64,000 nt of DNA from Flavobacterium sp. GTDB lineage: Bacteria; Bacteroidota; Bacteroidia; Flavobacteriales; Flavobacteriaceae. Shown here in pieces: positions 37,206 through 55,584 of the stretch. The stretch spans positions 27,760 to 91,759 of the forward strand of contig NZ_SEBS01000015.1 in assembly GCF_004211145.1 (NCBI RefSeq). Reading direction: 5' to 3'. Under the pieces are notes generated by a model. That model was not told the DNA's origin. It did no database searches and saw only the letters and a list, made by a program, of their open reading frames with translations. A program made the position numbers and the translations under genes. The first letter of the stretch is position 1. The number at the start of each line of letters is the position of its first letter.

Positions 37206-37208
37206 TAG

Positions 37209-37235
37209 AACTCCGGATTATGTCCGGAGTTTTTT
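37209..37235 (+). terminator. Rho-independent terminator
   Basis: AACTCCGGA (37209-37217) pairs with TCCGGAGTT (37223-37231). Loop is TTATG, followed by a T-run. Confidence 0.85.
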
Positions 37236-44071: not shown

Positions 44072-45373
44072 TCATTCTCGCGAAGTTAGCAAAAACGATT
44101 TGAGCTGCTCATACGTTTTGATCTCCGAAAAAACTTTCGTTTTGTCCATGACGCTTTGAATTTGCTCCGGGATTTCGGGCGATATTCCCAAAACCGCTTC
44201 CACGACGTCCAAAAATTTCACGGGATGAGCCGTTTCGAGCAAGAATCCGACGGAATCCGGGAAATTGACCGATTCCTTCTTCAACCCCAAATATCCGACC
44301 GCTCCGTGAGGTTCGAGCAGATAACCGGTTTCAGCGTAAACTTTTTTCATGGCCGAAACGGTTTCCTCGTCCGAAAACGAATAAGCCGAAAACGCCTTTT
44401 CGAATTCCGATTTATCGTCGTTGTACAGTTCCCTGATGCGGATGAAGTTGCTTGGATTCCCGACGTCCATCGCGTTCGACAGTGTCGCGACCGATGGTTT
44501 CGCGTCGTATTTCCAATCGTCCAGGAAGCGCACGACCGTATCGTTTTCATTCGTCGAAGCTACGAAATGTTGAATCGGAAGGCCGAGTTTTTCGGCTAGG
44601 ATTCCCGCGCAGATGTTTCCGAAATTTCCGCTCGGACAAGAAACGACAAGCGGTTTGCCTAATTTCTTCAATTCCTTGTACGCGAAAAAGAAGTAGAACA
44701 TTTGCGGCAGCCAGCGCGCGATGTTTATCGAATTCGCCGACGTCAAATTTTCATGTTGCAGATCTTCGTCGAGAAACGCTCGCTTCACCATGTCCTGGCA
44801 ATCGTCGAAAACGCCATCGACGCGCAACGCCTTTATATTCTGTCCGAGCGTCGTGAGTTGGCGTTCCTGTACGTCGCTGACTTTTCCGTTCGGATATAAA
44901 ATTACGACGTCGACGCCCGAAACACCGAGAAATCCGCTTGCGACCGCGCCGCCCGTATCGCCCGATGTCGCGACGAGAACCGTGTTTTTCGCGTCGGGAT
45001 TTTCCTTGTTGAAATAGCCCAGACAACGCGCCATGAACCGCGCGCCGACGTCCTTGAACGCCATCGTCGGGCCGTGGAACAGTTCGAGCGAATAGGTGTT
45101 TTCATCAATTTTGACAAGCGGAAAATCGAACGAAAGTGTTTCCTCGATTATCTTTTTTAATTCGGCCTCGGGAATCTCATCACCGACGAATTGCTTTATC
45201 GCTTCAAACGCGATGTCGGCGTTCGAAAAATTTCCGATCCCGTCGAAAAAATCTTGGGGCAGACGCGTTATGCTTTCGGGAAAATACAAACCTTTATCGG
45301 GCGCTAGGCCTTGGATTACGGCTTCCCTGAAACTGACTTTTGGCGAATTATGATGTAAGCTGTAATAGTTCAT
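44072..45373 (-). CDS. thrC: Threonine synthase
   Basis: FHGPTMAFKDVG (PLP lysine), TSGDTGGA and SANSINIARWLPQ motifs. ATG 45373 (MNYYSL..) lies 1 nt after the thrB stop and is preferred over TTG 45388. Confidence 0.93.
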   Translation of the reverse strand: MNYYSLHHNSPKVSFREAVIQGLAPDKGLYFPESITRLPQDFFDGIGNFSNADIAFEAIKQFVGDEIPEAELKKIIEETLSFDFPLVKIDENTYSLELFHGPTMAFKDVGARFMARCLGYFNKENPDAKNTVLVATSGDTGGAVASGFLGVSGVDVVILYPNGKVSDVQERQLTTLGQNIKALRVDGVFDDCQDMVKRAFLDEDLQHENLTSANSINIARWLPQMFYFFFAYKELKKLGKPLVVSCPSGNFGNICAGILAEKLGLPIQHFVASTNENDTVVRFLDDWKYDAKPSVATLSNAMDVGNPSNFIRIRELYNDDKSEFEKAFSAYSFSDEETVSAMKKVYAETGYLLEPHGAVGYLGLKKESVNFPDSVGFLLETAHPVKFLDVVEAVLGISPEIPEQIQSVMDKTKVFSEIKTYEQLKSFLLTSRE

Positions 45374-45374
45374 G

Positions 45375-46304
45375 CTACTTTTTTTCAAGGATTTTAATGC
45401 CGCCTGGATTTACTTTCGACACATGGATTTCGTAAGGAACGTTGATTTGGTCGTACACGCGACTCATCGCCGAAGCGACGTTTCTCGCCGTTTCTTCTCC
45501 GCGACTCAGCGCAAATACCGACGGTCCGCTACCCGAAATCCCCGAACCCAAAGCACCGTGCGACTGGGCCGCGCTTTTTAGTTGGTCGAAACCCGGAATC
45601 AACATGCCGCGGATCGGTTCGACGATCTTGTCCTGCAACGAACGCCCGATCAAATCGTAATCCTTCGTGTACAATCCCGCGACGAAACCACCGACGTTTC
45701 CCCACTGGACGATAGCGTTTTGGAGCGTTATGTTTTGTTTGAGCACCGATCTCGCGTCGGCTGTCTTCAATTCGATTTGCGGATGGACGACGGTCGCGAA
45801 CAATTCCTCAGGCGATTCGATCCTGATCACGTCAAGCGGATCGTAACTGCGCACGAGCGTGAAACCACCCAAAAGGGCAGGAGCGACGTTGTCGGCGTGG
45901 GCGCTTCCCGATGCGAGTTTTTCGCCCTGCATCGCGAATTTTACCAAGTCCTTCAATTCGTATGGCCGTCCGAGCAATTCGTTGATCGCGAAAACGGCAC
46001 CCGCCGAACTCGCCGCCGAACTCCCGATTCCACTGCCGGCTTTGATCTTCTTGTTGATTTCTATTTCGAACCCGAAGTCGGTTTCCCATTCGCGAAGCAT
46101 TGCGAGAGCCGCGACTCCTGCAACGTTTTTCTGGGTTTCCAAAGGCAAATCGGCGCCTTCGATCTTGGAAATCCTCACGGTCCTTTCGTCGATCTTGCGC
46201 ACGGTCATCTCATCTCCGACATTGTCGAGACAGAGGCCAAGCACGTCGAAACCGCAGGAAAGGTTGGCAATTGTGGCGGGGGAGAATATTTTGATGTAGT
46301 CCAT
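45375..46304 (-). CDS. thrB: Homoserine kinase
   Basis: GHMP-kinase motif KIKAGSGIGSSAASSAG. 309 aa. Located between thrA and thrC. Confidence 0.93.
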   Translation of the reverse strand: MDYIKIFSPATIANLSCGFDVLGLCLDNVGDEMTVRKIDERTVRISKIEGADLPLETQKNVAGVAALAMLREWETDFGFEIEINKKIKAGSGIGSSAASSAGAVFAINELLGRPYELKDLVKFAMQGEKLASGSAHADNVAPALLGGFTLVRSYDPLDVIRIESPEELFATVVHPQIELKTADARSVLKQNITLQNAIVQWGNVGGFVAGLYTKDYDLIGRSLQDKIVEPIRGMLIPGFDQLKSAAQSHGALGSGISGSGPSVFALSRGEETARNVASAMSRVYDQINVPYEIHVSKVNPGGIKILEKK

Positions 46305-46454: not shown

Positions 46455-48902
46455 TTAGATATTCCCGACCCGAATCACATCCGCAAAAATCCCACTCGCC
46501 GTAACCGCAGCGCCCGCACCTGCGCCTTTTATCAAAAGCGGTTGGTCGACGTAGCGATCGGTGAAGAAAAGCACGATATTGTCCTTGCCTTCGAGGTTGT
46601 AGAACGGATGGTCTTTTGCGATGAACTGCAAGCCGACGCTCGCTTTTCCGTTTTCGAACTGGGCGACATATTTCAGTCGGCTGTCATTGGATCGGGCCTG
46701 TTCGTAAAGGTCGTTAAAATGCGCGGCGTTCGCTTCGAGGGATTCCAAAAATTCGGGAACTGATTTTGTTTCGAGACAGGCTTTGGGAAGGAACGACAGA
46801 TTCTCGATATCGCTCATTTCCATTTCGTAACCGCTTTCACGGATAAGGATTAGGATTTTACGGGCTACATCGACGCCACTTAAATCTATTTTCGGGTCAG
46901 GCTCCGTAAAACCCTGAACGCCTGCTTCTTTGACGACTTCTTTAAAACTCGTGTTTTCATTAAAATTATTGAATATAAAGTTCAGACTACCTGATAGGAC
47001 TGCCTGGATCTTATGTATTTTATCGCCCGAAGCTACCATGTGTTTGAGCGTATCAATGATCGGCAAACCGGCTCCGACGTTCGTTTCGAAAAGGAAAGGC
47101 GAATTGTATTTTCGGCTCAAATTTTTGAGATGATTGTAGTTGCCATATTCTGATGAACACGCGATTTTGTTGCACGTGACGACCGCGATATTATCTTCGA
47201 GATAATCGGCGTAGGTTTCTGAAACTTCGGCATTCGCGGTGATGTCGACGAAAATGCTGTTGCGTAAATTGAGCGCTTTTACCTTTTCGATGAACGTTTT
47301 TTTGTTCGCGGTTTCGCCATTCTCCATTCCGGATTTCCAGTCCTTCAACGAAATTCCTTCTTCGTCGAAAAGCATCTTGCGCGAGTTCGAAAGCGCAATC
47401 ACGCGCAGATTTATCTTGAGATTTTCACGCAGGAATTTCTTTTGTTGGTGCACTTGGTCGAGGAATTTTTCGCCGACATTTCCGACGCCCATCACAAATA
47501 GGTTGAGCTGTTTCGTATTGTCTTCAAAGAACTGCTCGTGCAACGTATTGAGCGCTTTTTTCACATCGCGTTCGTTGATGACGACTGAAATATTGCGTTC
47601 CGACGCACCTTGAGCGATCGCACGGATATTTACGTTGTTTTTACCCAACGTACTGAACATCTTGCCGCTGATTCCCTGGTGGTTTTTCATGCTTTCACCT
47701 ACGAGCGCGACAATGCAAAGCCCGTTTTCGACGATGCAAGGTTCGATTTTGTGTTGGGAGATTTCGACTGAAAATGCCTTGTTGATCGCAACACTCGCCT
47801 TATCGGATTCGCTGTCGAGAATCCCAATGCAGATCGAGTGCTCCGACGACGCCTGCGTTATGAAAATCACGTTGATGCCGTTGTCGGACAAGACTTCGAA
47901 CAATCGTTTCGAAGAACCCGCGACGCCGATCATTCCCGAGCCTTCGAGTGTCAGCAATGCGATTTCTCCAATATGCGTTATACCTTTTATCGGGTTTGAC
48001 GACGTATCGGGATTGTTTGATATCAACGTTCCGAACGCATCGGGTTCAAATGTATTTTTTATGTAGATCGGAATGTTCTTGTCCAAGGCCGGTTGGATCG
48101 TGGGCGGATAAAGCACTTTTGCACCGAAGTGCGACAATTCCATGGCTTCCTGGTATGAGATCGACTCGATAGGGCGCGCCTGTTTCACGAGTTTCGGATT
48201 TGCGGTGAACATGCCGTTTACGTCGGTCCAGATTTCGACTCGTTCCGCATTGACGGCCGCTGCGAAAATGGCTGCCGTGTAATCGGAACCGCCTCGTCCT
48301 AAGGTCGTGTTGTCGCCATCTTTGGATGAGCCGATAAATCCGGGCATTACGGTTACCCTGACAGGGTGTTCGCTAAAATAACTGACAGTCAAATTGTTAG
48401 TCATCTCAAAATCGACATTTGCTTTCCCAAAACGGTTGTCAGTTTTGATAAGCTCTCGGCTGTCTTTGTATTCGCTCGACGGAACGTATTGTTTGAGCGC
48501 TTCGGCAATGATGCACGACGACAATAATTCCCCGAATCCGACGATCGTGTCTGAAGTCCTGTTCGATAGTTCGCCCAGCAGGAAACATCCGTCAAGCAAC
48601 GTCTCTAAATGATTCAGGATACGTTTTGCATGGCTCAACAGGCTGCTTTGGATTTGTATCGGCAATAATTCCTTGATTGCGTCCAGGTGTTTTTTCTCGA
48701 TTTCGGATACGATTTCGCGGTACGATTCGTCTTTCGACGCTGCGGTCGATGCGGCTTTGAGCAATAAATCGGTCACGCCGCTAAAGGCTGAAACCACGAC
48801 GATGAGTTGTTCTTTTTCGCTTTTGTGCTTCACGATCTCACAGACCGCTTTAATATTTTGGGCACCGCTAACCGATGTCCCGCCGAATTTCAATACGTTC
48901 AT
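46455..48902 (-). CDS. thrA: Bifunctional aspartokinase / homoserine dehydrogenase
   Basis: 815 aa. N-terminal aspartokinase (MNVLKFGGTSV, GRGGSDYTA), ACT region, and C-terminal homoserine dehydrogenase (VMGVGNVG.., GAGAGAAVTASG). Confidence 0.95.
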   Translation of the reverse strand: MNVLKFGGTSVSGAQNIKAVCEIVKHKSEKEQLIVVVSAFSGVTDLLLKAASTAASKDESYREIVSEIEKKHLDAIKELLPIQIQSSLLSHAKRILNHLETLLDGCFLLGELSNRTSDTIVGFGELLSSCIIAEALKQYVPSSEYKDSRELIKTDNRFGKANVDFEMTNNLTVSYFSEHPVRVTVMPGFIGSSKDGDNTTLGRGGSDYTAAIFAAAVNAERVEIWTDVNGMFTANPKLVKQARPIESISYQEAMELSHFGAKVLYPPTIQPALDKNIPIYIKNTFEPDAFGTLISNNPDTSSNPIKGITHIGEIALLTLEGSGMIGVAGSSKRLFEVLSDNGINVIFITQASSEHSICIGILDSESDKASVAINKAFSVEISQHKIEPCIVENGLCIVALVGESMKNHQGISGKMFSTLGKNNVNIRAIAQGASERNISVVINERDVKKALNTLHEQFFEDNTKQLNLFVMGVGNVGEKFLDQVHQQKKFLRENLKINLRVIALSNSRKMLFDEEGISLKDWKSGMENGETANKKTFIEKVKALNLRNSIFVDITANAEVSETYADYLEDNIAVVTCNKIACSSEYGNYNHLKNLSRKYNSPFLFETNVGAGLPIIDTLKHMVASGDKIHKIQAVLSGSLNFIFNNFNENTSFKEVVKEAGVQGFTEPDPKIDLSGVDVARKILILIRESGYEMEMSDIENLSFLPKACLETKSVPEFLESLEANAAHFNDLYEQARSNDSRLKYVAQFENGKASVGLQFIAKDHPFYNLEGKDNIVLFFTDRYVDQPLLIKGAGAGAAVTASGIFADVIRVGNI

Positions 48903-48943
48903 TTTGTTTGTCTTGGTGTAAATGCAAGTGATTTTGTCTTTTC

Positions 48944-49038
48944 AAAACGAAAAAACACGGAGTACGGTTGATATGTTTTCAGATTACCCCAAAGGGGTTG
49001 TGGTAGTGCCAACCGTTGTTGCAACCGTAGTGGTCGTG
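48944..49038 (-). promoter_or_regulatory. Candidate transcription attenuator of the thr operon
   Basis: In the minus-sense RNA, CACG (49038-49035) pairs with CGUG (48959-48956). UACGGUUG (49029-49022) pairs with CAACCGUA (48970-48963). Together they form a 12-bp interrupted helix followed directly by U6 (48955-48950), CG and U4. The 5' arm is made of the Thr codons ACG ACC ACU ACG of the leader ORF. An internal ACCCC-UUU-GGGGU hairpin lies at 48998-48986, and an alternative partner ACGGUUG at 49016-49010. Confidence 0.45.
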
Positions 49039-49070
49039 ATGTAGAGAGTGTATGTGATTTGCGTTGGCAT
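48984..49070 (-). CDS. Thr-rich leader peptide (thrL-like), 28 codons
   Basis: Hand translation of the minus strand gives MPTQITYTLYITTTTVATTVGTTTTPLG*. That is 13 Thr and 2 Ile in 28 codons, ending 81 nt upstream of the thrA ATG. It is below the ORF-track length cutoff. Confidence 0.6.
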   Translation of the reverse strand: MPTQITYTLYITTTTVATTVGTTTTPLG

Positions 49071-49075
49071 GGTTC

Positions 49076-49105
49076 CAAAAGTAGTTCTTTTTTGAAAAAC
49101 CCCAA
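49076..49105 (-). promoter_or_regulatory. Candidate promoter of thr leader/operon (-33 TTG / -7 TACTTTTG)
   Basis: The reverse complement of 49076-49083 is TACTTTTG (TAnnTTTG). TTG (reverse complement of 49103-49105) lies 19 nt upstream. The -7 box ends 5 nt before the leader ATG, so the mRNA would be leaderless or nearly so. Confidence 0.4.
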
Positions 49106-49217
49106 GCAATTTGCCAATTTTTACGGATAATTCATAGCAATTAACAAAACCGTCATTTAAAATAAAGATGAATGGCGATTGTTATCTGTAAATTCCGAAA
49201 TCAAAAATTATAGCCGG

Positions 49218-50573
49218 TTACAGCGGCAACGCATCGAGAAGTTTTGATAATTCAGGATCGGATGGGCGAGGAGCATCGGCCGATACAATACTTCCGTTTG
49301 AATCGATGAGTATGAAACGCGGAATGCTTTCGACGATGTAACTGGCGACCAATTTAGAATTGAAGCCTAAACCGTCAATCAATTGCACACCTTGGAGATT
49401 TTCTTTTTTGACGAGATTCTGCCATTTTTCTTTGTCTCTTACATTGTCGATGGAAATACTGACGAACTCCACATTTTTTCCATTGTATTTCGCCTGGATT
49501 TCCTTAAGCGCGGGAATTTCCTCTCGACAAGGTTTGCACCAAGTCGCCCAAAAATCTATGTAGATATATTTTCCTTTGAGGTTTTCCATCGTCGTCCTGG
49601 AGCCGTTGAGATTCTCAAGATCGAAGCTTGGCGCGGGTTTTCCGGGAAGCAATGAGGCGAGTTTGGTAAACTTTTGAGTAATGTCTTTCTTAAGGACTTC
49701 ACTTTTGATCTCTTCCATCAACTTTTTATAGATGATTTCGCTGTTGGGATTACCGGCGTTGATGAAAAAACCGAAGCCGGCGAACATCGCATCCCGGATC
49801 ACAGGACTTTTAAAATGACGTTTGATTTTTTCGAACGGAAGTTTGTGCACGGTAGTCGTGTCCTGGGCCAAATTCGGTTGATCCTGTACGCTTCGCCTGG
49901 CCATATCCATAAAAACATTCGAGAACGTGAAATCGTCTTGATTGTCAAAAACCATCTTTGATTTTTCGGGCGTCGGAAAACTTTCTGAGGATTTATAATC
50001 AGGCAATTGCGCGATATCTTTGTGCCATTCGGGATAAATCCAGTATTCGTATTGGGTCGCATAATATTGGTCGCGTTCTTCCAATTTTTTGAACCGCGTA
50101 TTTTTTATATCCGACGATTTGTAAAGGCTGTCGCGACTTTTCGCCGTTTTCGCGATCGACGCCAAAAAGTCATTTTCGCCCAGCGTATAAAGCGCTTTTT
50201 GATCGGTTTTTTGTAACAGCACGGATTTGGCGGCCAAATATTGATTTTCCTTTGCCAGCGTTCCCTGAAATTTTAATGTTTTGAATAGATTTTTATAATC
50301 GGCATTTATGATAAGCGTTTTTCCGTTTTCAAGGTAAATCGACATTCCATCCAGTCCGGTGTGGAAATAATATTGGCCTTCGTAATCGAGCGCCAGTGTC
50401 GTCTTAAAACTTCCATCGGTCCCTAAATTTATTTTTTGGGACGTATACAGACCGATGATACTGATTTCATTTACCGCCGAATTGATGATTTTTCCCGATA
50501 TCACTGCCTTCGTTTGGGCGCGTATCGTAAACATAGAAGCGAAAAGGAACGTGAGAAGAATACTTTTTTTCAT
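49218..50573 (-). CDS. TlpA-family thiol:disulfide oxidoreductase (thioredoxin-fold, secreted)
   Basis: ATG 50573 gives MKKSILLTFLFASMFTIRAQ, a signal peptide. The C-terminal redoxin domain carries the WATWCKPCREEIP active site. Confidence 0.85.
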   Translation of the reverse strand: MKKSILLTFLFASMFTIRAQTKAVISGKIINSAVNEISIIGLYTSQKINLGTDGSFKTTLALDYEGQYYFHTGLDGMSIYLENGKTLIINADYKNLFKTLKFQGTLAKENQYLAAKSVLLQKTDQKALYTLGENDFLASIAKTAKSRDSLYKSSDIKNTRFKKLEERDQYYATQYEYWIYPEWHKDIAQLPDYKSSESFPTPEKSKMVFDNQDDFTFSNVFMDMARRSVQDQPNLAQDTTTVHKLPFEKIKRHFKSPVIRDAMFAGFGFFINAGNPNSEIIYKKLMEEIKSEVLKKDITQKFTKLASLLPGKPAPSFDLENLNGSRTTMENLKGKYIYIDFWATWCKPCREEIPALKEIQAKYNGKNVEFVSISIDNVRDKEKWQNLVKKENLQGVQLIDGLGFNSKLVASYIVESIPRFILIDSNGSIVSADAPRPSDPELSKLLDALPL

Positions 50574-55182: not shown

Positions 55183-55189
55183 CGAATTG

Positions 55190-55215
55190 AGCCTGTGATT
55201 TTCACGGGCTTTTTT
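55190..55215 (+). terminator. Rho-independent terminator
   Basis: AGCCTGTGA (55190-55198) pairs with TCACGGGCT (55202-55210), with one G-U pair. Loop is 3 nt, followed by a T-run. Confidence 0.8.
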
Positions 55216-55538: not shown

Positions 55539-55559
55539 CGGTGTCATTCAAACAAAGCA

Positions 55560-55584
55560 AAGCCTGCGAGAAGCGGGCTTTTTT
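55560..55584 (+). terminator. Rho-independent terminator
   Basis: AAGCCTGC (55560-55567) pairs with GCGGGCTT (55573-55580). Loop is GAGAA, followed by a T-run. Confidence 0.8.

Follow-up and report, generated by a model that had tools for sequence, protein, structure and literature searches.

The 64,000-nucleotide (nt) stretch of Flavobacterium sp. DNA analyzed here (assembly GCF_004211145.1, contig NZ_SEBS01000015.1, positions 27,760 to 91,759 of the forward strand; hereafter the window) carries the threonine operon thrA-thrB-thrC and, adjoining thrA, a small threonine-rich open reading frame (ORF) with its own promoter. All three operon genes were identified with scores exceeding their NCBIfam cut-offs, and the window thrA product was 100% identical to a protein listed as 'MAG: Flavobacterium sp.'. 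Translation of the leader ORF gave the peptide MPTQITYTLYITTTTVATTVGTTTTPLG, in which 13 of the 28 codons encode Thr and two encode Ile, and the sequence immediately before it contained a TTG-19 nt-TACTTTTG promoter located 5 nt from the ATG. The ORF, the promoter and the operon context that an initial annotation of this DNA had reported were thereby confirmed. With 46% Thr, the leader ORF ranked first among the 383 ATG-initiated ORFs of 20-80 amino acids in the window, where the runner-up reached 30%, and the binomial probability of such a Thr content was 2e-9 when 6% Thr was assumed. The leader contained 28% C and 14% G, and the GC content of the 64-kb window was 46.6%. From these features and the comparative data described below, we consider the element to be, with high likelihood, a leader-peptide attenuator that senses Thr and Ile. 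The features of the locus are collected in Table 1, in which the helix proposed in the initial annotation is called the long-range helix.

Table 1. Coordinates of the leader, its RNA elements and the threonine operon in the window (MFE, minimum free energy).
Feature	Position	Strand	Remarks
-33-like TTG of leader promoter	49103-49105	-	19-nt spacer to the -7 box; read from sequence
Bacteroidetes -7 element TACTTTTG	49076-49083	-	consensus TAnnTTTG; ends 5 nt 5' of the leader ATG
Leader ORF	49070-48984	-	28 codons + UAA, MPTQITYTLYITTTTVATTVGTTTTPLG; homologous in-frame ORFs in relatives
P0a 5' arm UGCCAAC (codons 1-3)	49063-49069	-	pairs with 49013-49007; inverted repeat I4
Long-range helix 5' arm CACG..UACGGUUG (codons 11-17)	49022-49038	-	Watson-Crick pairs verified
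First Thr run T12-T15 (ACG ACC ACU ACG)	49026-49037	-	overlaps 5' arms of P0b and of the long-range helix
P0b hairpin CGACC-ACUAC-GGUUG	49022-49036	-	inside the ORF and inside P0a; in the MFE fold
Second copy ACGGUUGG	49009-49016	-	pairs with UCAACCGU (48971-48964) in the MFE fold; direct repeat D2, inverted repeat I3
P0a 3' arm GUUGGCA	49007-49013	-	directly 5' of the final Thr run; in the window, shares nt with the second ACGGUUGG copy
Final Thr run T22-T25 (ACU ACC ACA ACC)	48996-49007	-	family-wide conserved regulatory run; abuts P1
Hairpin P1 ACCCC-UUU-GGGGU	48986-48998	-	5' arm = last Thr + Pro codon; 3' arm runs into the stop UAA (48986-48984)
Conserved box ACAUAUCAACC	48966-48976	-	family consensus ACAUAUMAUCC; conserved alignment columns
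Long-range helix 3' arm CAACCGUA..CGUG	48956-48970	-	immediately before the U tract
U tract U6-CG-U4	48944-48955	-	candidate termination/pause site; also 5' arm of the next hairpin
U-arm/A-arm hairpin UGUUUUUUC-GUUUU-GAAAAGACA	48935-48957	-	48957-48949 pairs with 48943-48935
thrA, bifunctional aspartate kinase/homoserine dehydrogenase I	46455-48902	-	NF006959, 1049.5 bits (cut-off 726)
thrB, homoserine kinase	45375-46304	-	NF002288, 414.8 bits
thrC, threonine synthase	44072-45388	-	TIGR00260, 289.4 bits

The leader was compared across 84 loci, comprising 80 Flavobacteriaceae thrA loci from a one-genome-per-species scan and four closer relatives fetched via their proteins (individual loci are denoted by L numbers). 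A Thr-rich ORF of 26-40 codons was found 5' of thrA in Flavobacterium, Lutibacter, Galbibacter, Joostella, Aquimarina and others. As a search signature, we used ACCC-loop-GGGKT followed 6-15 nt later by YATAT, which captures P1 and the conserved box. This signature matched once in the 64-kb window, with 0.02 matches expected, and once per locus in 57 of the 84 loci, lying on the thrA strand just 5' of thrA in all of these except L056; a Thr-rich ORF in this position was thus present in the related genomes. The ACC codon at P1 was in the frame of the ORF in 50 of 50 leaders. The codon-position entropy in these leaders was 1.39 bits at third positions, as compared with 0.87 and 0.97 bits at positions 1 and 2. 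Each of the six codons preceding P1 specified Thr in 26-50 of the 50 leaders, and the replacements were mostly Ile; Ser, Phe, Gly and other residues also occurred at some of these positions, and Met a single time. Since the frame is kept and the third positions are freer, selection acts on the codons and not on a nucleotide repeat. As judged from these family-wide in-frame ORFs, the leader peptide is genuine and conserved across the family, in line with the initial proposal of an unannotated leader of the thr operon with Thr and Ile codons. The run that had been singled out there, T12-T15, was not the conserved one: it was kept in L081 (STTTTV), only scattered Thr was seen at this place elsewhere in the relatives, and the family-conserved run is the C-terminal T22-T25, which abuts P1. 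On these comparisons, the ORF is very probably a thrL-like regulatory leader of the Flavobacterium thrA-thrB-thrC operon, a role in which it would be translated.

We define the Flavobacteriaceae thrA leader by the following elements: a -7 box separated from the AUG by at most 11 nt; a final Thr/Ile run that shares its frame with the ACC of P1; a P1 of the form ACCC(C)-loop-GGG(G)U with the stop codon inside or next to it; a YAUAU..CC box 9-11 nt later; and a U tract with an A-rich complementary arm. The window carries every one of these elements. In marine Flavobacteriaceae (L048, L049, L052, L068, L069, L070, L077 and L079), Met (AUG) codons were mixed with Ile and Thr codons in the regulatory run, as in VIAIMTIMTLRGL and FFVTIIMTLLG. 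The aspartokinase/homoserine dehydrogenase branch ends in three products, Ile, Thr and Met, and the Met codons in the runs of these marine relatives suggest that all three are sensed. No leader was seen in the approximately 250 nt viewed 5' of thrA in the Winogradskyella-type loci (L046, L062, L063, L065, L071, L072, L075 and L078). There, thrA, with an apparent GTG start, stands directly behind an ORF ending ...NDKPDLFQFLI and a stop codon, and this arrangement without a leader places thrA presumably within a larger operon. In L059, the place of the leader, about 130-250 nt 5' of thrA, is taken by a sequence resembling a tRNA (anticodon loop CUGAAAA), after which come a hairpin and a U run. 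The leader ORF was mostly missed by automatic gene callers. In L084, a 37-amino-acid gene was called automatically directly 5' of thrA (1147-1260); 28-31 of its codons correspond to the Thr-rich leader, and it carries neither a Pfam match nor a name.

In most of the 50 leaders, 4-11 nt separated the -7 box from the leader AUG. The gap was 4-5 nt in 15 leaders, including that of the window, and 17-22 nt in five, and a -7 box was not detected in four of the 50. In F. johnsoniae, the transcription start site lies 4-5 nt after the -7 element (PMC6847099). The position of the box, taken together with this spacing, places the beginning of the leader ORF at the 5' end of the transcript or a few nt from it, which implies that the window leader mRNA is leaderless or has a predicted 5' untranslated region (UTR) of 0-1 nt. 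Leaderless mRNAs account for approximately 5% of flavobacterial transcripts (PMC9723704). Loading of 70S ribosomes on a 5' AUG would be a natural case for coupling and attenuation in Bacteroidota, which ignore Shine-Dalgarno sequences.

Conserved RNA elements were present on both sides of the final Thr run. On the 5' side, the arms of P0a and the hairpin P0b form a domain within the ORF, and a homologous 5' arm of P0a was located in relatives at about nt 12-19. In a sequence-based alignment of 32 leaders, six of eight P0a pairs and six of seven P0b pairs showed changes on both sides; the covariation score of this 5' domain was 0.192, with 0.05-0.11 in slid controls and no score as high in 500 shuffles. 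The sequence of P1 was invariant in 45 and 32 aligned leaders, where it holds or abuts the stop codon, and its energy had a z-score of -5.1 relative to shuffles. RNAalifold, run on whole-family MAFFT alignments, recovered P1 alone, and the 5'-domain helices needed a named structure. The box follows P1 by 9-11 nt whatever the position of the stop codon (+5, +11 or +14) and was predicted to be single-stranded in the free RNA. The U tract comes 3-20 nt after the box in the family. A 7-nt window with at least six U residues occurred at +30 to +55 from P1 in 60% of 42 non-redundant leaders, compared with 0-17% for other intervals.

The U tract also forms the 5' arm of a hairpin with an A-rich stretch, and the segment of the window that holds this U-arm/A-arm hairpin (48903-48968) had an MFE of -7.9 kcal/mol. 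Homologous hairpins were found in nearly all leaders (for example, L015, L022 and L041; z = -1.6, p = 1e-12), and the sequences of the two arms vary between clades while their complementarity is kept. We rejected this hairpin as a terminator on either strand, since it is in no case followed by U residues in a tract, and as a DNA operator, since the arm sequences differ by clade yet stay complementary. P1 was likewise rejected as a terminator: its 3' flank is U-rich in some loci and A-rich in the window, L003, L014 and L018, and the logic would also be inverted, as a lagging ribosome would cause termination. A direct repeat (D3) places AAGACAAA both in the A-rich arm (48933-48940) and just 5' of the thrA AUG (48907-48914), so that the U tract could pair with either copy. 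This suggests that the A-rich arm may act as a decoy, sparing the thrA start region, which is A-rich and has no Shine-Dalgarno sequence, from pairing with the U tract.

In the window, the RNA preceding the U tract can pair with the leader ORF itself. The initial annotation had described a 12-bp interrupted helix followed by U6-CG-U4, and we confirmed that all 12 pairs are of the Watson-Crick type: CACG (49038-49035) with CGUG (48959-48956), and UACGGUUG (49029-49022) with CAACCGUA (48970-48963), the 8-nt part being inverted repeat I2. The U tract begins directly after the helix and ends 41 nt before the thrA ATG (48902), a distance previously given as about 45 nt. The duplex energy of this long-range helix was -11.0 kcal/mol (z = -1.6 relative to shuffles). 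The conformer containing it had an energy of -21.3 kcal/mol and the MFE fold one of -22.0 kcal/mol, a difference of 0.7 kcal/mol. In the MFE fold, the second ACGGUUGG copy is paired with UCAACCGU, and ACUCCGUG is left unpaired before the U tract. The pairing probability (P) of CGUG at the U tract was 0.61-0.67 in free RNA, of which 0.31 was to codons 11-17, and the remaining half or so was to trivial CAC triplets further upstream. When a ribosome footprint was placed on T12-T14, the P of CGUG decreased from 0.64 to 0.03-0.08, and the second ACGGUUGG copy took over the 3' arm; with the footprint on T22-T23, P before the U tract was 0.14-0.41. An imperfect 12-nt direct repeat, GGUUGCAACAAC/GGUUGGCACUAC (D2), occupies 49009-49029 on the minus strand. 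It yields two ACGGUUG copies that compete for one CAACCGU, and the duplication is specific to the window and already degraded in L081. The predicted thermodynamics of the window leader match the mechanism of the initial annotation and include a built-in competitor helix.

The explanation that we favor, with a probability of roughly 0.5, is attenuation at the U tract by a closing helix whose 5' arm lies in the Thr codons. Four parts of this account are inferred: that the ORF is translated, that ribosomes stall at its Thr codons, that transcription terminates at the U tract, and which helix closes on the tract. In this scheme, the operon would be transcribed from its own TTG/TAnnTTTG promoter as an mRNA that is leaderless or has a 1-nt leader, and a 70S ribosome could start once the AUG emerges, because the AUG stands at the transcript 5' end. 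The speed of this ribosome over the 13 Thr and two Ile codons would report the supply of charged tRNA-Thr and tRNA-Ile, and the decision point in the window would be the U6CGU4 tract (48955-48944). If the ribosome has left or never loaded, CGUG would close on CACG..UACGGUUG (codons 11-17), enclosing P1, and transcription would stop before thrA. If the ribosome is held on the Thr codons, it would cover the 5' arm, and the duplicate ACGGUUGG (49016-49009) would take CAACCGU; the U tract would thus be without a hairpin, and RNA polymerase would read into thrA. P1 would probably also act as a pause hairpin that synchronizes ribosome and polymerase, a role proposed from its fixed distance of 9-11 nt to the box by analogy with the geometry of the his and trp pause hairpins. 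As to the read-out alone, hairpin-dependent termination at the U tract, possibly of a weak kind assisted by NusA and NusG, is a tentative proposal that we rate a little short of even odds. Weak intrinsic termination assisted by NusA and NusG is known from Bacillus.

The closing helix would have its 5' arm in Thr codons in each lineage where one can be drawn: in codons 11-17 in the window, in the last run in L081 and, in L022-L028, in the Thr codon that comes last. L081, whose thrA is 89% identical and whose peptide is MPTQVTYTFFSTTTTVATTLGTTTTPLG, is the closest relative. In its MFE fold, CGUG closes on the CACG of the last Thr run (ACC ACG ACC) with a P of 0.70, and with a ribosome on T22-T25 the P of the G and U adjoining the U tract was 0.2-0.45 instead of about 0.8. 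A hairpin in L022-L025 and L028 (-10.5 to -12.8 kcal/mol) joins the last Thr codon (ACCC) to a GGGU directly before the U-rich tract and encloses the pairing between GGGG and the box. Ordinary small hairpins followed by U residues were found in L009-L011, L026, L030, L039, L040, L047 and L083.

Several results weigh against a closing helix as the general read-out. Folding of the window leader, a check suggested at the outset, returned a non-terminating fold as the MFE structure. In L081, GGUUG is changed to GGUCG and CAACCGUA to CA-CCGGA, by which the 8-bp part of the long-range helix is reduced to 4 bp without compensation; the competitor helix of the window (ACGGUUGG:UCAACCGU) is also lost. 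The masking of the 5' arm by a ribosome on the first Thr run, as originally envisaged, was therefore reproduced in the window folds and not in L081, where a footprint on T12-T14 produced no change. The long-range helix was also absent in L001, L076, L004 and L013. Complementarity between the pre-U segment and the ORF showed no excess over shuffles in 49 leaders (mean z 0.02), which means that a helix as good as that of the window is expected by chance in one or two loci. Likewise, the pre-U segment and the final Thr run had no excess of complementarity, with a mean z of -0.02 and p < 0.1 in 12% of loci, and lineage-specific closing helices cannot be demonstrated statistically for lack of such an excess. 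When terminal helices were forced, most loci gave positive energies or trivial 3-bp closures only, and the three nt before the U tract had a mean P of 0.25 across the family. The possibility of a local hairpin formed by attenuator segments 3 and 4, in the interval from the box to the U tract, was rejected for the family, since its energy was no better than that of shuffles (z = -0.09 at 37 C, z = -0.06 at 20 C). The stop codon falls at +5 to +14 and the U tract near +42, so that a ribosome at the stop codon would leave about 15-20 nt free, which is too short for this hairpin.

A simple scan for sigma-70 promoters and terminators returned nothing in the window leader, and no canonical GC-rich hairpin followed by a U run was present there. 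Canonical GC-rich hairpins of 9-12 bp with U tracts occur elsewhere, at 37207-37233 (+), 37817-37796 (-), 55189-55211 (+) and 55559-55581 (+); their lack at this site is therefore a trait of the leader and not of the organism. Finally, the favored model assigns no role to the A-rich arm, a conserved pairing partner of the U tract. Since a hairpin abutting the U tract is not predicted in most relatives, the read-out could be weak intrinsic termination, pausing or Rho-dependent termination. The closing helix, if there is one, appears to be lineage-specific. The exact helix of the initial annotation is probably lineage-specific at best, and we think it unlikely to be the functional one. The general interpretation of the locus as an attenuator with a Thr leader was right, and the specific helix found no support among the relatives.

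The main alternative dispenses with a classical terminator. Here, the conserved sensor would be the final Thr run together with P1, and P1 would pause the polymerase at the box 10-11 nt downstream for as long as the ribosome needs to arrive at that run, which would synchronize the two. After release of the ribosome at the stop codon inside P1, a G-poor, C/U-rich stretch of about 70 nt, consisting of the Thr run, box, pre-U segment and U tract, would be naked and would recruit a hypothetical Rho or nuclease between the 5' domain and the U-arm/A-arm hairpin as boundaries. A stalled ribosome would instead fill this stretch and free GGGG of P1 for pairing with the CC of the box, thrA would be expressed, and the long-range helix would be incidental. 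The invariance of P1, the box and their 9-11 nt spacing whatever the position of the stop codon argues for this arrangement, as do the absence of a family-wide hairpin before the U tract and the stable flanking structures, which show covariation or low z-scores. Masking of the 5' arm of P1 raised the pairing of GGGG with the box from 0.3 to 2.4 pairs on average, the only family-wide switch in the ensemble calculations, and the C/G ratio, at 5.0 for the Thr run and 2.1 for the interval between P1 and the U tract, is consistent with a factor-dependent read-out. Precedents of a general kind are tnaC with Rho in E. coli and mgtL and corL in Salmonella. However, the GGGG:box pairing is weak (mean -2.1 kcal/mol, z = -0.31), the C-richness of the Thr run is an automatic result of ACN codons, and the decent hairpin-U terminators in the nine loci with small hairpins listed above and in L022-L028 weigh against this alternative. 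We therefore regard it as possible, though doubtful, that the Flavobacteriaceae thrABC genes are under a leaderless attenuator without a terminator/antiterminator pair, acting through a P1 pause at the box and Rho or another, hypothetical, factor. If true, this would be a factor-dependent attenuator responding to hungry codons, suited to a phylum without Shine-Dalgarno-led initiation, and the U-arm/A-arm hairpin could mark where the loading zone ends or serve as a decoy for the thrA start.

A textbook four-segment attenuator would assign ACCCC to segment 1, GGGGUA to segment 2, the box to segment 3 and the pre-U stretch to segment 4, with 1:2 (P1) and a 3:4 terminator forming when Thr is plentiful and a 2:3 antiterminator forming upon a stall on segment 1. 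The order and spacing of these elements resemble those of trpL and thrL, with the stop codon between or inside 1:2 and the U tract after segment 4, and the 2:3 pairing did appear when segment 1 was masked. Individual loci also fit: the 3:4 hairpin of L083 (AGCC..GGCU) is clean and precedes U6, and L023 and L024 have AUAGCC..GGUUAU followed by a U-rich stretch (-4.6 kcal/mol). The energies in the window were, however, 0.0 kcal/mol for 3:4 and -1.3 kcal/mol for 2:3, the 3:4 pairing was no better than shuffles family-wide at either temperature, and the distance from the box to the U tract is only about 20 nt. We consider this scheme improbable. That the ORF is untranslated or non-regulatory, its ACN repeats being a matter of chance or a feature at the RNA or DNA level, or that the peptide has a function of its own, is very improbable: the ORF is indeed tiny and without a 5' UTR, but the frame is kept in 50 of 50 leaders with the regulatory positions remaining Thr, Ile or Met despite drift at third positions and in the remainder of the peptide, the AUG stands at the predicted transcription start, the signature lies next to thrA in its loci with the exception of L056, and no other small ORF in the window is as Thr-rich.

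Within the operon, thrB overlaps the longest thrC ORF by 14 nt (45375-45388). Since this longest ORF begins with TTG, the true thrC start may be further downstream.

We compared the leader with known systems. A cmscan search of window positions 48500-49500 against Rfam 15 (E <= 10) gave only a chance match to mir-308 and no match to Thr_leader (RF00506), and six related loci gave no match at E <= 0.1; neither the window leader nor the six relatives matched Bacteroid-trp (RF01692), T-box or a riboswitch family in Rfam 15. For thrA of B. thetaiotaomicron (BT_2403), an RNA 5' end is listed 10 nt upstream in a differential RNA-seq table (PMC7366714). This end has no -7 box, and CACCC...GGGG occurs within the 50 nt upstream of it; it may be a processed end of a longer leader, and other Bacteroidota orders may have a version of their own.

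For the ilvE, hisG, aromatic and trp genes of F. psychrophilum, leader peptides have been predicted that all come with canonical terminators (PMC9723704, Supplementary Information D9, Table S7), and the Bacteroid-trp leader RF01692 is known from the same phylum (PMC2864571). The initial annotation had called leader-peptide attenuation best documented in Proteobacteria, and these predictions, one set of them made within Flavobacterium, render the novelty at the level of the phylum weaker than stated. The thrABC genes are absent from F. psychrophilum. No account of a thr leader from Bacteroidota turned up in the literature searched, although older comparative-genomics papers may mention one; Vitreschak et al. 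(2004) reportedly mentioned attenuators in Bacteroidetes/Chlorobi. The thr leader resembles RF01692 and the F. psychrophilum leaders in belonging to the same phylum or genus and in having tandem end-product codons in a short ORF 5' of a biosynthetic operon. In contrast, the F. psychrophilum leaders end in canonical hairpin-U terminators, such as GCCUUCCGAGAAAUCAGGAGGC-U7 in ilvE, and none of this canonical type was found in the window thr leader; relative to RF01692, it has Thr codons and a thrA context, and it is not described in PMC9723704 or PMC2864571.

The closest functional likeness is to enterobacterial thrL (RF00506), with which the Flavobacterium leader shares a short Thr/Ile-rich ORF directly 5' of thrA-thrB-thrC and the expected coupling of operon transcription to the charging of tRNA-Thr and tRNA-Ile. 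It differs from thrL in being leaderless (as predicted), without a Shine-Dalgarno sequence and without a GC-rich terminator. It has its stop codon in an invariant GC hairpin, a conserved single-stranded box and a U tract that is paired by a downstream A-rich arm, and Met codons are added in marine relatives.

In the tnaC, mgtL and corL leader ORFs, the position of the ribosome governs Rho-dependent termination, and free Trp, or Pro and Mg2+, are sensed. As in these systems, the position of the ribosome here would set access to G-poor RNA by the stop codon, and no intrinsic terminator would be needed; the trigger, however, would be hungry Thr and Ile codons, and Rho is purely hypothetical. In pyrBI, close coupling blocks termination, and the signal is UTP-dependent pausing. 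The mechanism of the initial annotation is similar to pyrBI in that a ribosome on the terminator arm would stop termination without a dedicated antiterminator. Here, hungry codons would hold the occluding ribosome in place, and 50-80 nt separate the terminator arm from the U tract downstream of it.

The element gives the thr operon of the Flavobacteriaceae, a family of considerable size and ecological importance, an annotatable regulatory mechanism and a compact search signature that Rfam 15 lacks. Compared with the textbook attenuator scheme, the box, the U-arm/A-arm hairpin and the U tract without its own hairpin do not fit. The departures from that scheme are the leaderless start, a stop codon in an invariant hairpin, the box, a U tract without a conserved hairpin before it, the U/A hairpin and, in some relatives, Met codons; the leader could be either an unusually weak intrinsic terminator or a factor-dependent variant.

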